A stretch of DNA of 64,000 nt from an uncultured Bdellovibrionales bacterium. GTDB lineage: Bacteria; Patescibacteriota; Minisyncoccia; Moranbacterales; UBA1568. A program made the translations under genes and the position numbers. The notes under the pieces were generated by a model, which worked only from the letters and a program-made list of their open reading frames with translations, was not told where the DNA came from and ran no database searches. Shown here in pieces: positions 7,010-64,000 of this stretch. The stretch covers positions 4,520-68,519 of the forward strand of contig CAYUIR010000001.1 in assembly GCA_964444815.1 (NCBI GenBank). Direction: 5' to 3'. Position 1 is the first letter of the stretch; every line of letters starts with the position of its first letter.

Positions 7010-8467
7010 ATGGCAAAGGACAACGTTGTTCTCAGATTTGATAAGGTGTCGTTTGAATACGGACACAAGAAACCCATCTTAGATGAGGTGAGTTTCAGTT
7101 TGCGCGTGGGTTCCAAGATCACTCTCATGGGTCAGAATGGGGCCGGCAAGAGCTCACTCTTTAAGCTCATTACCCGTGAGGAACAGCCTCAGGCCGGACG
7201 GATCTCGATTGACCGGGACGCCGTCGTGGCTATCGGGCGCCAGACCATTCCGCGTGACCAGCTTGATTTGACCGTCGAAGAATACTTCCAGCAGTTTTTT
7301 CATGAGAAGCAGTGGAACCTCGCGAAGCACATCGCCGATGTCCTCGAGGTAGTCAATCTCCCCATGCCACCACTTGATAAGAAGATCCGTCAGTTTAGCG
7401 GTGGTCAGCAGGCACGCTTGCTCCTCGCCTCGGCCCTGATCCAGGATCCAGATATCCTCCTCCTCGATGAACCGACCAACAACCTCGACTACGCTGGTAT
7501 CTCACACCTGACCCAGTTTCTCATTGATTACAAAAAGACGGTCATCGTTATCTCGCACGATGCCGAATTCTTGAACGCCTTTACGGAGGGCGTGTTTTAT
7601 CTCGATATCTTTACCCACCAGATCGAACAGTATACCGGCAACTACTATGACGTGGTAGAGGAGATCGCCAAGCGCATCGCCAAGGCCCAGAGTGAAAACG
7701 TCCGACTCGAACGCACGATCCAGGAGAAAAAAGATCAGGCCAACGTCTTTGCCAACAAGGGAGGCAAGCTCCGTGCTGTCGCGAAACGGATGCGCACCCT
7801 CGCCGAAGAACTCGAGGAAAACAAAGTCGACGTCCGGCAGGAAGACAAGACGCTCTCGGCCTTCGAAATCCCTACTCATGGTATCGTCGGACCGATTGTG
7901 AATATCAAGACCGTGTCGGTACTCGGTGAATTCGGGCCAAATATCAAGCGCGTGGACATGGTCCTCAAGAAAAACACGCACCTCGTCGTCTCCGGGCCAA
8001 ATGGTATCGGCAAGTCGACGTTTCTCGAGGAGCTCGCCACTGGCAACACAGAACGGGCCGAGATTACGCCCGGGGTCAAGGTTGGCTACTATCGTCAGGA
8101 TTTTTCGACTTTGGATTTCAACAAGACCGTAGCAGAAACACTCCTTGATTCACTCCCAGAGAAGAACATCGAGCTCGCCTACAAGGTGGCGACCAAGTTT
8201 CTCGTGCCGGCCGAACTCCTTCAGAATAAGGTAGAGAGTCTCTCAGAGGGTCAAAAGGGTCTCCTCATGTTTGCTTGTCTCTATGCCGAAAAGCCCGATC
8301 TCCTTATCCTCGATGAACCGACCAACCATATCAACTTTCGTCACCTGCCAGTAATCGCTGAGGCCCTCGATAAGTATCAGGGTGCCATGATTCTCGTCTC
8401 TCACGTCCCGGACTTTGTCGCTCAGATTCGCATCGATGAGGTGCTTGATTTGGAGTCTTTGAGCTAG
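7010..8467 (+). CDS. ABC-F family ATPase (two ABC domains, no transmembrane region)
   Basis: Two sets of Walker A (GQNGAGKSS, GPNGIGKST), signature (FSGGQQARL, LSEGQKGLL) and Walker B (LLLDEPTN, LILDEPTN) motifs with a linker. The start was moved to MAKDNVV at 7010. The 73-codon upstream extension in the ORF track is not convincing. Confidence 0.85.
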   Translation: MAKDNVVLRFDKVSFEYGHKKPILDEVSFSLRVGSKITLMGQNGAGKSSLFKLITREEQPQAGRISIDRDAVVAIGRQTIPRDQLDLTVEEYFQQFFHEKQWNLAKHIADVLEVVNLPMPPLDKKIRQFSGGQQARLLLASALIQDPDILLLDEPTNNLDYAGISHLTQFLIDYKKTVIVISHDAEFLNAFTEGVFYLDIFTHQIEQYTGNYYDVVEEIAKRIAKAQSENVRLERTIQEKKDQANVFANKGGKLRAVAKRMRTLAEELEENKVDVRQEDKTLSAFEIPTHGIVGPIVNIKTVSVLGEFGPNIKRVDMVLKKNTHLVVSGPNGIGKSTFLEELATGNTERAEITPGVKVGYYRQDFSTLDFNKTVAETLLDSLPEKNIELAYKVATKFLVPAELLQNKVESLSEGQKGLLMFACLYAEKPDLLILDEPTNHINFRHLPVIAEALDKYQGAMILVSHVPDFVAQIRIDEVLDLESLS

Positions 8468-8471
8468 GGGT

Positions 8472-8557
8472 GTTTCTTTCGACCGTTACCGGTACGCTCC
8501 CTCCAGAGGCGGGCAGGCATCATGGATGTGACCGACGGCACCCGAGAAAGAAAAAAC
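8472..8557 (+). repeat. conserved intergenic motif, copy A (core ACGCTCCCTCCAGAGGCGGGCAGGCATCA...ATGTGACCG...CACCCG.AGAAAGAAAAAA)
   Basis: Identical core 29-mer plus 9-mer, 6-mer and 12-mer blocks are shared with copy C (62913-62997). Flanked by GTTTCTTTCG / CGAGAAAGAAA, which could form a closing stem. Confidence 0.6.
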
Positions 8558-8595
8558 AAATCTTCTCCTCATCTGCGAAATGCGAAACAATTTTC

Positions 8596-8628
8596 AAAAC
8601 ACAGAAATTCGCATCTCTGTGTTTTTGT
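8596..8628. terminator. bidirectional rho-independent terminator between convergent genes
   Basis: Hairpin AAAACACAGA-loop-TCTGTGTTTT with T-runs on both strands. Lies between the ABC-F stop (8467) and the minus-strand gene stop (8633). Confidence 0.5.
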
Positions 8629-8632
8629 AATA

Positions 8633-9055
8633 CTATTTTTCTTCAAAAAAGAGTTGCCAGAAGAGGTAGCCGGCAATGAGAAACAAGAGAATGATGAGAG
8701 GGATACTGAGTGGAGGGAATTTGATGAGGGAGACGACGAGGATGGAGGTACCCCAGAGGAGAGCGAGTACCAAGAGGGGATGACGAGGAGTGATGGTGAG
8801 GGGAAATGAGAGACCCAGGAATCGACCGAGGGCGGTGATGAGAAGGGTGAAGACCACAAGCACGAGGAGGAACAGTGCGAGACTAAAACGGACCGTGACA
8901 AAGGTCGGGAGGAGGGTCTCGACGGTAAAGAGCCCCAGGAAATAGAGGTAGCCGATGACGAGGGCCTCGGTCGCGAGGGCATAGAGTACCTGGAGGAGGC
9001 CAGTCTCTTTAGAGTGACGGAGTCTAGAAACGAATTGCTGGTAGAGAAATTGCAT
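8633..9055 (-). CDS. hypothetical small integral membrane protein (4 predicted TM helices)
   Basis: Hydrophobic 140-148 aa product. Start chosen at MQFLYQ (9055), 11 nt after the upstream stop; the alternative start is 9079. Confidence 0.5.
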   Translation of the reverse strand: MQFLYQQFVSRLRHSKETGLLQVLYALATEALVIGYLYFLGLFTVETLLPTFVTVRFSLALFLLVLVVFTLLITALGRFLGLSFPLTITPRHPLLVLALLWGTSILVVSLIKFPPLSIPLIILLFLIAGYLFWQLFFEEK

Positions 9056-17171: not shown

Positions 17172-17563
17172 CCAGAACAGATTGGATTATCGCGCGGCCA
17201 AGCCCTGAAAGGGGTCTGGAGCGAGGAAAGTCCGGACACTGAGCCACAGCGTAAGCAAGTGGCAAGGGTAATGGGTAACCCCCATACGCCGTGAGGCGCG
17301 AGGTGCGAGCAGAGACGCTCTTCTCCGAAAGGAGTGAGTATCCAGCAATGGATAAGTCTTCATATAAGTTCAGGGTTTACTCTGAGCGAAGTCGAAGAGT
17401 GAAACGGCTAAATCCTTACCTCGGTGCAAGGTCGTGCCTAGATCCTCTTGGAGCTCAAGAGGGGACGGGAGAACTGCAAAGATTCGGCTGGTAACAGTCG
17501 GACAAGATAAATGATAATCTCTGCTTTCGGGCAGAACAGAATCCGGCTTATAGATCTGTTTTG
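17172..17563 (+). ncRNA. rnpB: RNase P RNA, bacterial type A
   Basis: Both P4 strands are present: GAGGAAAGTCCGGAC at the 5' side and ACAGAATCCGGCTTAT at the 3' side. GGCTGGTAACAGTCGG parallels E. coli M1 GGCUGGUAACAGUCCG. A P1 helix is formed by CAGAACAGAT and ATCTGTTTTGG. Confidence 0.85.
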
Positions 17564-17610
17564 GAAAAGAGCGTCTAACAGCGAGAGTCCAACTCCTTAA
17601 GACTTTTAGA

Positions 17611-58597: not shown

Positions 58598-58784
58598 GAG
58601 ATCCTGTACATTCTCTCATATCTTAAGAAAATGTTCAGATTTCGAGGGGAAGATCTTGAAAAGTGAGCGAGGGCTATATTCATAACCCGACGAGCTTTGA
58701 AAGATTTTACACCGAAATATGGACATTTTGTAAGATAAGCTCTTTTTGCTATTTCTATTGGCGTTGAGAGAATGTACAGGATCT
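58598..58784. repeat. 187 bp element bounded by 19 bp near-perfect inverted repeats (MITE-like or long structured RNA)
   Basis: GAGATCCTGTACATTCTCTC at 58598-58617 is the reverse complement of GAGAGAATGTACAGGATCT at 58766-58784 (19 of 20 positions). A nested second inverted-repeat pair is ATCTTAAGAAAATGT and ACATTTTGTAAGAT. Confidence 0.5.
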
Positions 58785-59073: not shown

Positions 59074-60549
59074 CTAAGATCCTCTTCGTAGGAGCTTCTG
59101 GAGCGGGGCGATATCAGTGTCACTGAGCTCCTTCACCAGACGGAGGTAGACGAAGTAGAGGGCAAAAAGGAAGCCACCTGAGAGGAAAAAGGAGATCGGA
59201 CCGTGAGGCAGGTATGGAGCTATAAGGGCAATCATAAGCGTGCCAAGGAGCGAGAGGAGGACGGTTCGTAAGGAGAGCTTCACATAAAAGTGTCGAGCGG
59301 TCGCCACCAGGATAGCAACCATGAGAAAAAAAGAAGTAATGGTCGTCGAGAGCGCCGCGCCGACGAGCCCAAAGACCGGGATCAAGAAGAGATTGAAGAG
59401 AATCATGAGGAGAAATCCGCCAGAGGCGAGATACATGGGAATTTTGACTAATCCAGCGCCATTTAGGGCAAAGGAGAGGACGTAAAAGACGGTGAGGAAT
59501 CCGACTCCAACCGCAAAAACACTCATGGGAGCGAGGGCCTCGGCATAACGGGCGCCATAGAAGAAATGAAGGACCTGAGATCCAAAGGCTATGAGAAGCG
59601 TTACCATCGGAAAGAGGAGAAAGGTCATGAGACGGAGAGAGCGGTTGACGAGGCTCTCGGTGCCAGCTGTGTCCGCTTCAGCCGTGGTTTTGGAGATAGC
59701 GGGGAGGAGGATGATAGTGAGCGCGTAAAAGAGGAAATAAGGGATGCGTCCGACGGTGATGGCGGCGTTGTAGATGCCGGTTAGGTAGTCACTACCGAGC
59801 ATACTCTTCACAAAGTAGAGGTCGAGGGTGAGGATAAGTTCATAGAAAAGGAGAAATGCAGTCAGTGGTCCCGCGTAGGCGAGGATGGTTTTGCCTGAGA
59901 AGAGCTCTACTTCTTTGCGTCTAGTGTCTCTTAGAGTTGGGAAATAGCGATGGGTGACCAAGAGGTCAAAGAGGATAGCTATCCCAAAGACAAAGAGCGG
60001 GGCGATGATATAGCCTGTGATGGCTCCTTCAACCCCAAAGATTGAGGCGAGAAGAACGATAAAGACCACCCGGCTGATTGCTCGCAGGGTTTTGAGGGCC
60101 GCTTGAACTCGGAAGAAGTGGAGCCCAGTAAAGTAGTAGAAATAAAACGAGGCGGCAGCAAAGGCGGGGATAATTAGTGAGGAGAGCTGAAAGAGCGGCG
60201 TAAGCGATGGATCGCGGAGGACCCAAGCAATAAGCGGTGACGCGAAGAAGAAAACGGCGGTCACTGAGAGCATGAGGATGGCCTGGAGGCGGAGCGCTTG
60301 GTACTTGATGCCGAGGATTTTCCCCGGGGCGGACTCAAAGATCTCGCTTAGGTATTTGGACATGGCCGTGGGGATGCCGTTTCCGATCAGGATGATAATC
60401 ATGGTGGTGAGCGTCACCACGAGACCATAGCGACCATACTCCTCAGGGCCGAGGATGCGGCCGAGTGACGACTGGATGATGTAGCCACCGATGTTGTAGA
60501 TGACCTCTGAGAGGGTCAACCACACCAATGCTTGAGAGAATTTTTTCAT
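59074..60549 (-). CDS. Wzx-like polysaccharide flippase (MOP superfamily)
   Basis: 491 aa with about 14 TM helices. Confidence 0.7.
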   Translation of the reverse strand: MKKFSQALVWLTLSEVIYNIGGYIIQSSLGRILGPEEYGRYGLVVTLTTMIIILIGNGIPTAMSKYLSEIFESAPGKILGIKYQALRLQAILMLSVTAVFFFASPLIAWVLRDPSLTPLFQLSSLIIPAFAAASFYFYYFTGLHFFRVQAALKTLRAISRVVFIVLLASIFGVEGAITGYIIAPLFVFGIAILFDLLVTHRYFPTLRDTRRKEVELFSGKTILAYAGPLTAFLLFYELILTLDLYFVKSMLGSDYLTGIYNAAITVGRIPYFLFYALTIILLPAISKTTAEADTAGTESLVNRSLRLMTFLLFPMVTLLIAFGSQVLHFFYGARYAEALAPMSVFAVGVGFLTVFYVLSFALNGAGLVKIPMYLASGGFLLMILFNLFLIPVFGLVGAALSTTITSFFLMVAILVATARHFYVKLSLRTVLLSLLGTLMIALIAPYLPHGPISFFLSGGFLFALYFVYLRLVKELSDTDIAPLQKLLRRGS

Positions 60550-60611
60550 ACTATGTTGTTACACGTTCTCTTTAAAATCTTCCTTTTCCTACCCTTGCGT
60601 ATCCGTCGAAC

Positions 60612-60737
60612 ATTTCTTTGCTCGCTTCGCCGAACGGGGAGCTGTCTTGTACCGAGGTGTCAATCACGCTCGACCGTTACCGGCACGCTCACAAGAAATG
60701 TTACCGACGTCACATCGGGAGTACAGAAAAGAAAGAT
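60612..60737 (+). repeat. conserved intergenic motif, copy B (diverged, internal deletion/insertion)
   Basis: Shares CGACCGTTACCGGCACGCTC with copy A (CGACCGTTACCGGTACGCTC). The 3' block ATGTTACCGACGTCAC...AGAAAAGAAAGA is also shared. Confidence 0.45.
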
Positions 60738-60756
60738 TTCAAGAGAACGTCCCGTC

Positions 60757-61380
60757 TCAAACATTTAATTTCCGTGTGATTTCTTGAAAAATACTTTCTT
60801 TGCTCTGATGAGCGTCGATCACGATCAAATCCCACTCGGCGGTACGATTTTTGAAGAGTTCCATCTTGGCACGGAGGTAGTCGATGCCTTGCTCTGGGGC
60901 ACGCTCACGAGTCATGATAGCTTCTGGAGTGAGGTCAAAGTAGAAACAGACATCGCCCTTGGGCGTATACTTCGCGAGCCATGCGATACCCAAGCGGATA
61001 GGCCGAAAGAAGAATCGGACGTCTCGTGCGAGATACTCGAGATTCACGACAGAGTCGTAGAATGAACGATCGGACAAGAGGTAATCATACCCTTGCCCCT
61101 CGAGTGATCGGCGGAGAAACATAAAGCGAATCATATCGATCAAAAGAAACTTCTCGCGGAGCACAAGAGACAGCCAGGAGGCCTTTGTAACAGCCTTTTC
61201 TTGGCCAGGTTCGAAATGCTTCTTTCCGTGCAAACATCTCGAAATTTTATTGGCCAACGAAAATTCAACCGCATGAAAATATGCCACTTTCTTGCCTGAT
61301 TGTTCCAGTTTGCTGCGGAGGAGTTCGAGCTGAGTGGATTTACCCGACCCATCGACTCCAGAAAGCGTAATGAACCGCAT
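60757..61380 (-). CDS. thymidylate-kinase-family P-loop kinase (divergent)
   Basis: Start at MRFITLSGVDGSGKSTQ (61380), 4 nt after the upstream stop. DRSFYDS is Tmk DRY-like. The canonical TREPGG lid is absent. Confidence 0.6.
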   Translation of the reverse strand: MRFITLSGVDGSGKSTQLELLRSKLEQSGKKVAYFHAVEFSLANKISRCLHGKKHFEPGQEKAVTKASWLSLVLREKFLLIDMIRFMFLRRSLEGQGYDYLLSDRSFYDSVVNLEYLARDVRFFFRPIRLGIAWLAKYTPKGDVCFYFDLTPEAIMTRERAPEQGIDYLRAKMELFKNRTAEWDLIVIDAHQSKESIFQEITRKLNV

Positions 61381-61384
61381 GACG

Positions 61385-62911
61385 TTAGTACATGATGACT
61401 GAGATAGGCTCAAGTTTGACGACAGGCTTGACGACATTATTTGCGACGACGCTTTCAATGACATCTTCGGCACGTTTGTAGTGCGATGAATCCTGTTCGA
61501 TTACCTTGGAGGAGCGACCATTGTAGAGTTTAACACCCCGGGTAGCCAATTTCTCATGGAGAGCTTCTTTACTCTCTGGTACGACATCGTCTGATTTCTT
61601 GACTGACTTACCAGCTCCGTGATTACAGGAGTAAAAGCTCGAGTCATTACCGTCTTGGCCGACGCAGAGATAGGCCTCGGTACTCATGGAGGTCGGAATA
61701 AAAGCCGGCTCGCCAGTGTCCTTGAATGTCGGGTGAGTGGTCATGCGACTTGGACCATAGGCGCGACTGGTGCCATTGCGGTGCACCCACACATTCTTAC
61801 CGTAGTGTTCTTCTTGGGAAACAAGGATATGAGGCATGTCGTAGAGGAGATCGGCCTCGATGGTCCTCCCCAGCACTTTCTCGGCCGTAGTGATGAAATT
61901 ATGCGTGATGGTGGCACGGTTGGCGTGAGCAAAGTTGGAGCACGCGCGTCTTGCTGCCATATAGAGCCGGCCGTCTTCGCCAGCGCCATCAAAGGTGATG
62001 AGTGGTTCAGCCTTGCCAAAATCCGAGGCACGAATCTTGTCGGCTATACGAGCGATCGTTTTCTTGAAAGGAGTGAGCCAGAAGAAGCGACCAATGTTCA
62101 TGAGGATGGCCGTCGAGAGGTGCTCACGCTTTTTGGCGGTAAACATGTACATTGTGTACTGACCGAGGATGCCTGAGCCACAGTGAACCATGAGGATGTA
62201 CTGGCCTTTGCGGAGGTTGAATCGCGCTGCTACCTCTGGGTCAACGACGTCAGTCACCTTCATGAGATCGAGGAAGTGGTTGCCGGCTGCGCCGATGATG
62301 CCCGAGCGGAACTGAGCAAAAAAGAGAAAGAGGGGCGGGATGATATTCATGATGCCCCGACGGGTAGGCGCCTCGTCAAAGAAGTTGCCTCGGTCAATGC
62401 TGTTCTCCGCTTCGTGTTTCGTCTTGATGCCGAGGTACTCGATGAGGGGAGCGATACCGAGGCGGCCGATATCGACAATCACTCGGAAAGGAAGGACTGT
62501 GCCGACTACTTTTTTGGTCGGGACCGTCTTGGTTGCTTTCTGGAAAATTCGGTCTATTTCCTCTGGGGTAATATTGGTGTCATAGAGGTCGAGCCGGACG
62601 AGACGCATCCCACAGGCCGGGTCACTGTCGTTCACCTGGGGAAGGATGTACTGCTCGGAAGCGACTGTGGTGCCCGTGGCGTTTTTGCGACCGGGCTTGG
62701 AGTGTACATCCGCCATGGCCGCGACGTGATGAAAGATGCAACCATTGGCTGCCACGCTCTCCAGTTGTTTCATGGTCTCGTCACCGGGCATGAGCTTGTC
62801 ACCCACATGAAAAACAACCGGAACTTTCATCTTGTCCGTTTTGAATTCGCTTTTATGAGGGGAGAGTTTAGTAATATTTGATTCGTACATAGAGATTTTG
62901 GTGAGTTTCAC
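61385..62911 (-). CDS. rtcB: RtcB-family RNA ligase
   Basis: Motifs ADVHSKPG, FDGAGEDG, HANR and NHGAGK (the NHGAGR position) are present. The start is GTG 62911 or ATG 62890. Confidence 0.85.
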   Translation of the reverse strand: MKLTKISMYESNITKLSPHKSEFKTDKMKVPVVFHVGDKLMPGDETMKQLESVAANGCIFHHVAAMADVHSKPGRKNATGTTVASEQYILPQVNDSDPACGMRLVRLDLYDTNITPEEIDRIFQKATKTVPTKKVVGTVLPFRVIVDIGRLGIAPLIEYLGIKTKHEAENSIDRGNFFDEAPTRRGIMNIIPPLFLFFAQFRSGIIGAAGNHFLDLMKVTDVVDPEVAARFNLRKGQYILMVHCGSGILGQYTMYMFTAKKREHLSTAILMNIGRFFWLTPFKKTIARIADKIRASDFGKAEPLITFDGAGEDGRLYMAARRACSNFAHANRATITHNFITTAEKVLGRTIEADLLYDMPHILVSQEEHYGKNVWVHRNGTSRAYGPSRMTTHPTFKDTGEPAFIPTSMSTEAYLCVGQDGNDSSFYSCNHGAGKSVKKSDDVVPESKEALHEKLATRGVKLYNGRSSKVIEQDSSHYKRAEDVIESVVANNVVKPVVKLEPISVIMY

Positions 62912-62912
62912 G

Positions 62913-62997
62913 GAAATTCTTCATGCGGGACGCTCCCTCCAGAGGCGGGCAGGCATCAGATATGTGACCGGCCTTCACCCGGAGAAAGAAAAAATTC
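62913..62997 (+). repeat. conserved intergenic motif, copy C
   Basis: ACGCTCCCTCCAGAGGCGGGCAGGCATCA is identical to copy A, followed by ATGTGACCG, CACCCG and AGAAAGAAAAAA. Confidence 0.6.
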
Positions 62998-63022
62998 TTT
63001 TGCAGGGATGCTGAGCGGCAGA

Positions 63023-64000
63023 TCAAAGCGATGAATATATTTCACTATATTGCTTGGCAGTATTTTTGAGGTCAAAGTGGTCTTTGACGTAGCGACGGGC
63101 ATTGTCGCCGAGACGGTGCTGTTCTTCGATATTATCCTTTAGATAAGCCAAAGATTCGATGAGTTTATCACCAGAATCTTTCGGGATTGTAACACAAATA
63201 TCAGGGTTTGTAAATTCAGCAAACTGGGGGAGATTGGAGAGGATAACTGGTTTACCGCAGGCATAAGCCTCGATGATGATAAGTGGGACATCAAACTTTC
63301 CTTTGAGATTTTCAACCGGAAAGATGACGACATCCGCGGTGTTGTAGAGCGAGGGCATATCGGTCGTAGCGCTCTGTTCGTCGAAGAGAATATGCTTTTC
63401 TAGGCCCGCGCTTTTTACTCTGGCCCTGATGTCTTCGCGCTTGGCGCGGTCGGCTTCATTTTTGATCCGACAGGCAAAGAGAAACTTCATGTTGGACTCG
63501 GGGTGTTCGGTGAAATAACGGAGAAACGTCTCAGCGAGCATGTCGGTGGCACCGAGGCGAGTGTATTCGCCGGGGTAGATAACCAAGAAGTCATCGGGAG
63601 TGAGGCCGTAGGTCGCGAGAACAGCCGGATTCTTATCTCTGGGTTGGTAGAGGTCGAGGTCGATGCCAGGGTAGATGCGGCTGACGTTCCGAAAGCCGAG
63701 TGCCTCGAGCTTGTTCTTGGTGCGGTCGGTATAGACGATAATCCGATCAGCAAAGAGGAGGGAACGGAGTTCTGTGGGCGTGTAGAGGTCTTCACGGAGC
63801 GTCGCTACCGTCTGGAGGGTACGTCCGGTTGGTCGTGCTAGCCATTTGATGAGGTTGGTGTTTTGTTTGGTCGGGGTAAAGAGATAGTGAGTGACATCAT
63901 AGTCCCGTCTGGTCCGGCGGAGATAGGCGAGCAGGCGGAGCTTGGTCGCTAGGTCAAAGTGGCCATGAGAAAAGATACGCTCTTCATGAGCACTCGCCGG
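63023..64000 (-). CDS. glycosyltransferase family 4, 5'-partial: N-terminus lies beyond the window end
   Basis: My hand translation of the minus strand is open from 64000 down to the stop at 63023. GT-B C-terminal domain ADVVIFPVEN...IEAYACGKPVILSN. The track's 63586 start is an internal TTG. Confidence 0.7.
   Translation of the reverse strand, partial: PASAHEERIFSHGHFDLATKLRLLAYLRRTRRDYDVTHYLFTPTKQNTNLIKWLARPTGRTLQTVATLREDLYTPTELRSLLFADRIIVYTDRTKNKLEALGFRNVSRIYPGIDLDLYQPRDKNPAVLATYGLTPDDFLVIYPGEYTRLGATDMLAETFLRYFTEHPESNMKFLFACRIKNEADRAKREDIRARVKSAGLEKHILFDEQSATTDMPSLYNTADVVIFPVENLKGKFDVPLIIIEAYACGKPVILSNLPQFAEFTNPDICVTIPKDSGDKLIESLAYLKDNIEEQHRLGDNARRYVKDHFDLKNTAKQYSEIYSSL

Follow-up and report, generated by a model that had tools for sequence, protein, structure and literature searches.

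Very short G+C-rich palindromes are known as mobile G+C clusters, or palindromic mini-elements, of fungal mitochondria. The CGTC/TGTC-tagged REP super-family is defined by an unpaired CGTC, TGTC, or CCTC tag at one end, an AT-initial stem of 8–9 bp, a loop of 4–5 nt, and a 3-nt tail (PMC3733652). In such REPs, TGTC precedes an AT-led 8-bp stem that closes a loop of 4–5 nt, and CCA forms the tail (Di Nocera et al. 2013, PMC3733652); a dedicated transposase is not known for the CGTC type (PMC3733652). IS200/IS605 elements, PATEs, and REP/RAYT systems are associated with HUH Y1 enzymes (PMC6006769); among these, IS200/IS605 elements span ≥100 nt, carry two distinct subterminal hairpins along with guide sequences, and use a fixed tetra- or pentanucleotide target. 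Finally, BoxC/TMECO repeats follow the pattern CCCTCNCCC-N3-6-GGGNGAGGG-N3-GGGNGAGGG (PMC4666352).

Here, we describe a 19-nt module that has the appearance of a mobile DNA element of extremely small size rather than of an RNA gene, and for which we found no description in the literature searched by sequence string and topic. Like REPs (including BIMEs and NIMEs), it is a small, multicopy intergenic palindrome that occurs in several phyla, in either orientation and in inverted doublets, preferentially between convergent or co-directional genes. Unlike REPs, it has no GTAG or CGTC tag, combines a mismatched 6-bp stem with a CAGGC tail, can sit inside REP loops, and is identical across phyla, whereas REP families are species- or genus-specific. 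It shares with the fungal mitochondrial clusters clean insertion in A+T-rich spacers and nesting inside one another, but the latter are organellar, longer (30–50 nt or more), and of different sequence, and homology is not implied. With IS200/IS605 elements, PATEs, and REP/RAYT (PMC6006769), the module has in common that it inserts next to a short specific sequence and duplicates no target, that it is seamlessly present or absent, and that it has an imperfect hairpin and an orientation bias related to replication (GC skew being the proxy). However, a single weak hairpin stands in place of distinct left and right ones, the target is about one base (YC), and no Y1 gene was matched near any module copy using approximate query sequences. 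No target duplication of the kind expected of MITEs was detected beyond a single ambiguous C. BoxC/TMECO repeats (PMC4666352) are likewise intergenic, highly conserved in many genomes, built from a C-rich and a G-rich arm around a short loop, tied to local genome variability, and found away from mobility genes. They differ in being longer and of another consensus: the module, with its 6-nt arms, does not match the BoxC pattern, a second G-arm for a triplex is available only where its host happens to supply AGG, and descriptions of BoxC do not include insertion into other repeats.

The window analyzed here, i.e., the whole 64,000-nt stretch of DNA, had been described in an initial annotation as carrying three copies (A, B, and C) of a conserved intergenic motif. 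As stated there, A and C share an exact 29-mer, ACGCTCCCTCCAGAGGCGGGCAGGCATCA. It lies on the + strand in both cases (8494-8522 in A, 62930-62958 in C), and such a match was found in 0/100 shuffles. The two align with 87% identity over 69 nt, and this pair (family D6) was the sole sizeable non-coding repeat in a scan of the whole window. B does retain the 5′ block of A (CGACCGTTACCGG(C/T)ACGCTC at 60671-60690, 20/21 positions identical) and the A-rich tail, and also has ATGT(G/T)ACCGACG in common with it. It is not the rearranged copy that it had been taken for, however: after in silico removal of 8500-8518, A became colinear with B over ~65 nt, with a score of 60 (reached by 0/500 shuffles) compared to 38 for intact A. 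When its 19-mer was removed, C scored 58 against the A host and 42 against B, each reached by 0/500 shuffles. Since A and C align colinearly to B once the 19-mers are removed, B is the uninterrupted form of the host repeat. On the basis of these alignments, we consider A, B, and C to be members of one lineage-specific intergenic repeat of ~80 nt, and the 19-nt module within the 29-nt core to be a separate unit that forms no part of this repeat. The corresponding features are as follows.

8500..8518, + strand: copy A of the 19-nt module CCTCCAGAGGCGGGCAGGC; exact match, absent at the colinear position of B.
8481..8557, + strand: host repeat of A, from GACCGTTACCGG to GAGAAAGAAAAAAC; left limit set by contig L205, right limit by the point where similarity to C and B stops.
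62936..62954, + strand: copy C of the 19-nt module; exact match, unchanged at the L027 orthologous locus and in L206 and L207.
62913..62997, + strand: host repeat of C, supported by 19-mer-removed alignment to the A host and B.
60671..60745, + strand: right arm of B, an empty host repeat colinear with A and C minus their 19-mers.
60563..60650, − strand: left arm of B, a diverged and inverted host-repeat copy, supported by a self reverse-complement match.

The boundary of copy A carries a 1-nt ambiguity (8499-8517 is equally possible), and the position equivalent to the insertion in the right arm of B is 60690/60691 (...ACGCTC/ACAAG...). Over 60563-60750, the B region can be aligned with the reverse complement of itself, both arms end in the tail (A/G)GAAAAG(A/G)AAGATTT.AAAGAGAACGT, and a long hairpin is predicted by folding. 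Judged from this self-match, the two arms form a long imperfect palindrome, i.e., an inverted doublet of the host repeat, and the plus-strand placement originally given to all copies holds for A, C, and the right arm of B but not for the diverged left arm. The host repeat in the window falls outside the definition of CGTC/TGTC-tagged REPs.

The gene context was confirmed for all three copies. A follows an ABC-F ATPase gene (stop at 8467) and precedes a convergent gene, with a hairpin at ~8596-8625, 3′ of its host repeat, that we read by eye as a terminator. C falls in the spacer that separates two minus-strand genes, one for a glycosyltransferase and the other rtcB, and is 21 nt upstream of the longest rtcB ORF (GTG at 62911; called start ATG at 62890), while B separates a thymidylate-kinase-like gene from a Wzx/MurJ-like flippase gene, both again on the minus strand. 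Contig L027 (labelled Bdellovibrionales) is 94% identical to the window at the nucleotide level over 59667-64000. Conservation does exceed that of neighboring intergenic DNA, as had been proposed: C differs from L027 by 3 substitutions while the adjoining 100 nt are only 75% identical, and the B region (60564-60754) shows zero substitutions between flanking genes that are 93-96% identical. The perfect conservation of the B spacer could be functional or could stem from gene conversion or a recent transfer. The end of Logan contig L206 falls within B, as would be expected of a repeat.

At copy A, contigs L203 and L204 show no difference from the window. By contrast, in L205, whose ABC-F gene specifies the same protein but is 94.9% identical in nucleotides, GTTTC(C)TTC is retained and the whole A element is missing from 8481 on. 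The closing stem previously noted around A, TTTCTTTC/GAAAGAAA, does exist, but its left arm is also present in L205 and therefore belongs to the flanking DNA rather than to the element. A separate difference was observed between L205 2118-2226 and window 8468-8632, where another terminator-like hairpin, GCTTGCTTGCCCCTGCGAGGCAAG, replaces AAAACACAGAAATTCGCATCTCTGTGTTTTT while the genes are conserved on both sides.

Within the module, an imperfect 6+6 inverted repeat, CCCTCC-AGA-GGCGGG, whose first C is the base preceding the insertion, is followed by the tail CAGGC, and the 6-bp stem includes a U·C mismatch. A search for further copies, which the initial annotation had suggested, recovered the same 19-mer, letter for letter, at >200 other sites in uncultured bacteria, with otherwise unrelated flanks. 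All collection searches used exact matches only, so that diverged copies are under-sampled, and the taxonomy of the loci was taken from record titles alone. When the 22-mer CTCCCTCCAGAGGCGGGCAGGC was used for an exact-match scan of 185,579 species genomes, each species being represented once, 81 loci were obtained. Their titles name many Patescibacteria lineages, Dehalococcoidia, Kiritimatiellae, Bacteroidales, and Cryomorphaceae, along with MAGs titled Bdellovibrionales or Gammaproteobacteria. A metagenome scan with the bare 19-mer, free of the CTC bias of the first pattern, gave at least 120 loci, and the labels across the >200 sites comprise Patescibacteria, Dehalococcoidia, Kiritimatiellae, Bacteroidota, and “Bdellovibrionales”. 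The module was missing from IMG/VR, PLSDB plasmids, and GenBank phages when searched for exact matches.

The module is multicopy within single MAGs, several of which provide 3–5 module-bearing contigs each. Within one genome, the copies have longer, genome-specific flanks in common, while flanks are wholly different between lineages. In L140, L180, and L158, copies are arranged head-to-tail in tandem. We also identified variants with other loops and compensated stems (CCCGCC-AGA-GGCGGG, TCCGCC...GGCGGA, and CCCGCC-TTA-GGAGGG). Among these, pair 1-15 of the inner helix is C-G 12 times and U-A three times, and most variants have a U·C mismatch at pair 4-12, with G-C in its place in four, providing modest covariation support for this helix. 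A sister form in L185, L137, and L153 has the same arms and the tail TAAAC in place of CAGGC (e.g., CCCTCC-AGA-GGCGGG-TAAAC), and long loops of the type TTCG...CTTCG in other relatives hint at additional nesting.

Several other origins were considered. An assembly artefact is unlikely, as the same insertion is found in independent assemblies from several pipelines and samples. No reading frame is consistently open across sites, as a protein-coding motif would require. An origin from rRNA, prompted by a resemblance to 23S rRNA, was dropped, since the best match to the E. coli rrn operon is 15/20, equaled by 5% of shuffled cores. Hairpin plus CAGGC as a general “tag” is only weakly enriched (287 vs 170-237 for control tails).

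We then asked whether the module occurs as a precise insertion by deleting CCTCCAGAGGCGGGCAGGC in silico from each site and searching with the joined flanks. Empty relatives with the exact junction were recovered, and at least 15 host families exist in both states, including the following.

Filled L003 4255; empty L003 4085-4134; 49/50 identical.
Filled L079 363; empty L079 1305-1338; 34/34 identical.
Filled L076 1356; empty L076 3512-3420; 90/93 identical.
Filled Kiritimatiellae copies; empty L060 6502-6478; 25/25 identical.
Filled L089, L095, L104, and L143; empty classical REPs, e.g., TCTGGATTCCCGCTTTC/GCGGGAATGACA.
Filled A and C in the window; empty B in the window.

Empty relatives of L014 were also found in L023, and one of L030 and L031 in L076. 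The L076 host is a duplicated coding 3′ end whose reading frame is shifted by the inserted module. The junctions are thus seamless, and the target is essentially a single base: among the matches listed, 113 of 117 unique metagenome sites have C at position −1. At position −2, T accounts for 50% and C for 26%, and at position +1, A accounts for 53% and G for 26%; no other flank position is conserved, giving a YC^R target. Because of the near-constant C at −1, the conserved unit is 20 nt, i.e., a 19-nt insertion with a one-base ambiguity.

Although unrelated in sequence, the flanks frequently form stems. Pairing with a helix score ≥14 was observed for 33% of sites, compared to 5.6% for mismatched flank pairs, and the module usually sits in the loop of the host hairpin, often against its 3′ arm. 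Many hosts are CGTC/TGTC-tagged REPs as defined in PMC3733652, for example TGTCATTCCTGC-GAAG-GCAGGAAT-CCA in L104. Module and host together form a nested palindromic mosaic. A short sequence that would encode ...LYGLTPEEIKIVE, presumably a methyltransferase-like C-terminus, recurs in CPR spacers with no long ORF upstream (L030 1530, L031 2215, L081, L076, and L103). Three of these genomes have the 19-mer at the same position in this sequence, which may be a preferred target of the module; in L076, a 38-39 nt relative of the module precedes it.

The imperfect inverted repeat of the module is reminiscent of joined ends, and IS elements that target REP loops are known (IS1397 and the IS1111 group). 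The 19 nt might thus be a scar, or solo end, left by excision of a larger hairpin-loop-targeting element bounded by CCCTCC... and ...GGCGGGCAGG. This appears highly improbable, however, given that the length is always exactly 19 nt, no locus was found in which a longer insert splits the two halves (isolated halves were variants or chance matches), and no recurrent transposase-like family was identified among the 1,666 neighboring ORFs.

Next, we evaluated the orientation of the module relative to genes and to replication, using GC skew as a proxy for the direction of the latter and crude ORFs as gene calls. With respect to its flanking genes, the module was same/same in 17 cases, opposite/opposite in 16, convergent in 13, and divergent in 4; orientation to the nearest long ORFs is therefore random, and convergent spacers are preferred over divergent ones. 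The written strand of the module is the G-rich strand in 94/142 loci based on local GC skew (p = 1.4e-4) and agrees with third codon position skew in 90/142. This effect holds when coding-strand bias is accounted for (likelihood ratio p = 8e-5; reverse test p = 0.38), and in the 41 loci where skew and coding strand conflict, orientation goes with skew in 29. The window is in line with this trend: GC skew is positive throughout its + strand (+0.06 to +0.14), which bears A, C, and the right arm of B, and because of this uniformity the window probably lies in a single replichore. The bias is ~2:1 rather than absolute, with opposite-orientation pairs in L037 and L095. Taken together, orientation points to DNA rather than to transcripts. 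A bias of this kind is expected of elements such as IS608 and ISDra2 that use the lagging-strand template, and the bias may reflect the same use here.

A correlation with GC skew that is independent of genes would also be expected if the module were a chromosomal DNA signal, i.e., a polar, putative site for a replication, segregation, or repair protein whose function would itself cause the bias; the strictly kept sequence fits such a site, and the inverted-repeat layout would suit a dimeric protein. We give this explanation little credence. Known polar motifs are short and dense, whereas the module has 2 copies in 64 kb and its 22-mer only 81 matches in 185,579 species genomes. It is also dispensable, as indicated by the empty alleles and by L205, and it occurs in tandem and nested in other repeats.

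Overall, we consider it somewhat likely, with a probability of about 60%, that the module is a miniature non-autonomous DNA element that spreads via single-stranded DNA tied to replication, with a putative enzyme acting in trans. This reading would account for filled and empty pairs with exact junctions across at least 15 host families, for the module alone being common to sites whose flanks pair around it, for multiple and tandem copies with genome-specific flanks, for orientation along the GC skew, and for the absence of both the A element in L205 and the signs of an RNA gene. The initial annotation offered three options: a small structured RNA, a DNA site for protein binding or of partition type, and the termini ("ends") of a small mobile element. 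Of these, the last is the nearest, although “ends” needs rewording: the core is a complete 19-nt insertion, and its hosts occur with and without it. The data show a discrete unit with a seamless junction, a one-base target, a hairpin-loop context, a wide distribution, and an orientation that correlates with GC skew; that it moves via single-stranded DNA, and which class of enzyme would move it, we infer. The module may spread in a manner similar to IS200/IS605 “peel and paste” or to REP/RAYT, in which case a putative trans-acting nuclease or transposase would recognize the small hairpin and its tail and would act on hairpin loops exposed in the lagging-strand template. It gives no sign of serving the neighboring genes and would at most add a G+C-rich hairpin to untranslated regions.

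Several observations weigh against this mobile-element reading. One weak 19-nt hairpin is far below the two subterminal hairpins needed by IS200/IS605, and as DNA the inner hairpin reaches only −1 to −3 kcal/mol, no better than shuffles, with modest covariation. The skew bias is incomplete, as illustrated by the opposite-orientation pairs, and letter-for-letter identity across phyla fits poorly with an enzyme that co-evolves within each lineage. In addition, tblastn searches of 1.29 Mb of flanks and the window with approximate query sequences (RayT, IS200 TnpA, and IS608 TnpA) returned nothing better than E = 0.4, although the partner need not be nearby. A more specific version, possible but put forward tentatively, is that the module is the smallest mobile genetic element yet described: a single imperfect hairpin with a 5-nt tail would insert into and exit from loops in the lagging-strand template seamlessly and next to a C, and would be kept identical across phyla through dependence on an enzyme, either conserved or shared horizontally, whose kind has so far not been tied to transposition.

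Small GIY-YIG nucleases were the most recurrent neighbors, found in 10 loci (~8 per Mb of flank). In L035 (7205-7489) and L039 (5628-5918), these genes (94-96 aa) have CGTC/TGTC-type REP hairpins directly on both sides; the L035 gene has three tandem REPs upstream and one filled and one empty REP downstream, an arrangement that resembles RAYT genes between their REPs. The association of GIY-YIG genes with module-bearing REPs is a lead, not a result. A structure-specific nuclease of this type might cut empty loops, with repair then copying the 19 nt, so that the module would spread in a homing-like manner by gene conversion between repeats of one family and without transposition. The seamless junctions fit this scheme, as do the 10 GIY-YIG loci, two of them bracketed by CGTC-type REPs (one with the module), and the fact that most filled/empty pairs come from one repeat family in one genome with near-identical arms. 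Yet the ~70 unrelated flank types have a single C in common, so entry into new hosts cannot rest on homology; the GC-skew bias is not predicted either, and the GIY-YIG frequency is a raw figure. We thus regard homing-like spread as rather unlikely.

The reading as a structured RNA (either a small RNA or a UTR element that acts in cis), with a conserved loop that would bind a conserved cellular partner, seems quite unlikely. In its favor, stems vary around an invariant sequence, which would count as covariation, the module is found in untranslated regions (3′ or 5′), C is better conserved than the spacer next to it, and one L027 substitution would create a U-G pair on the minus strand. But these “covarying” stems are unrelated host repeats that are also found without the module, and their changes are therefore not compensatory within one RNA; by mimicking covariation, the module can also mislead structured-RNA searches. 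Stems contain no excess of G-U pairs (G-U vs A-C counts of 14 vs 20 and 23 vs 13), both orientations to genes are equally common, and neither a promoter-like site nor a terminator belonging to the module was detected at A or C. Folding, a check suggested by the initial annotation, gave energies (RNA and DNA, both strands) with z-scores of −0.1 to −1.5, within ~1.5 sd of shuffles. Similarly, Rfam searches returned no motif match in the whole window at the gathering threshold (RNase P alone), noise only for 8400-8700 at E up to 10, and tRNAs and noise for eight module-bearing loci at E up to 1. The earlier statement that the motif matches no recognizable RNA family thus stands, including its rejection of SRP RNA; 6S RNA, tmRNA, and self-cleaving ribozymes were likewise among the families covered. 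Removal at the RNA level (intron-like or bypass), considered because of rtcB next to C, was rejected, as in silico deletion of the 19 nt opened a long ORF at only 2/211 sites, both in high-GC DNA.

If the module is mobile as proposed, the known size limit for a precisely movable DNA unit drops, and orphan CGTC-type REPs gain a candidate mechanism. The question is then what recognizes and moves 19 nt at a one-base target while keeping it identical across phyla. A possible route to the enzyme is to profile the presence of the module against gene families for CGTC-type REPs with no known transposase. In uncultured lineages such as the CPR and Dehalococcoidia, the module would also be a natural probe of hairpin loops exposed as single strands when DNA replicates. 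In practice, such repeats break assemblies, as for L206 within B, and frameshift gene ends, as in L076.

The window contains other features distinct from the module. ARAGORN predicted no tRNA gene in the 64 kb. The RNase P hit at 17174-17566 (+) corresponds to bacterial RNase P RNA class A, with a score of 106.1 against a gathering threshold of 100 and a large unaligned stretch after approximately model position 120. Finally, a perfect 20-nt inverted repeat, AGATCCTGTACATTCTCTCA / TGAGAGAATGTACAGGATCT, is located at 58599-58618 / 58765-58784, with 146 nt between its arms.
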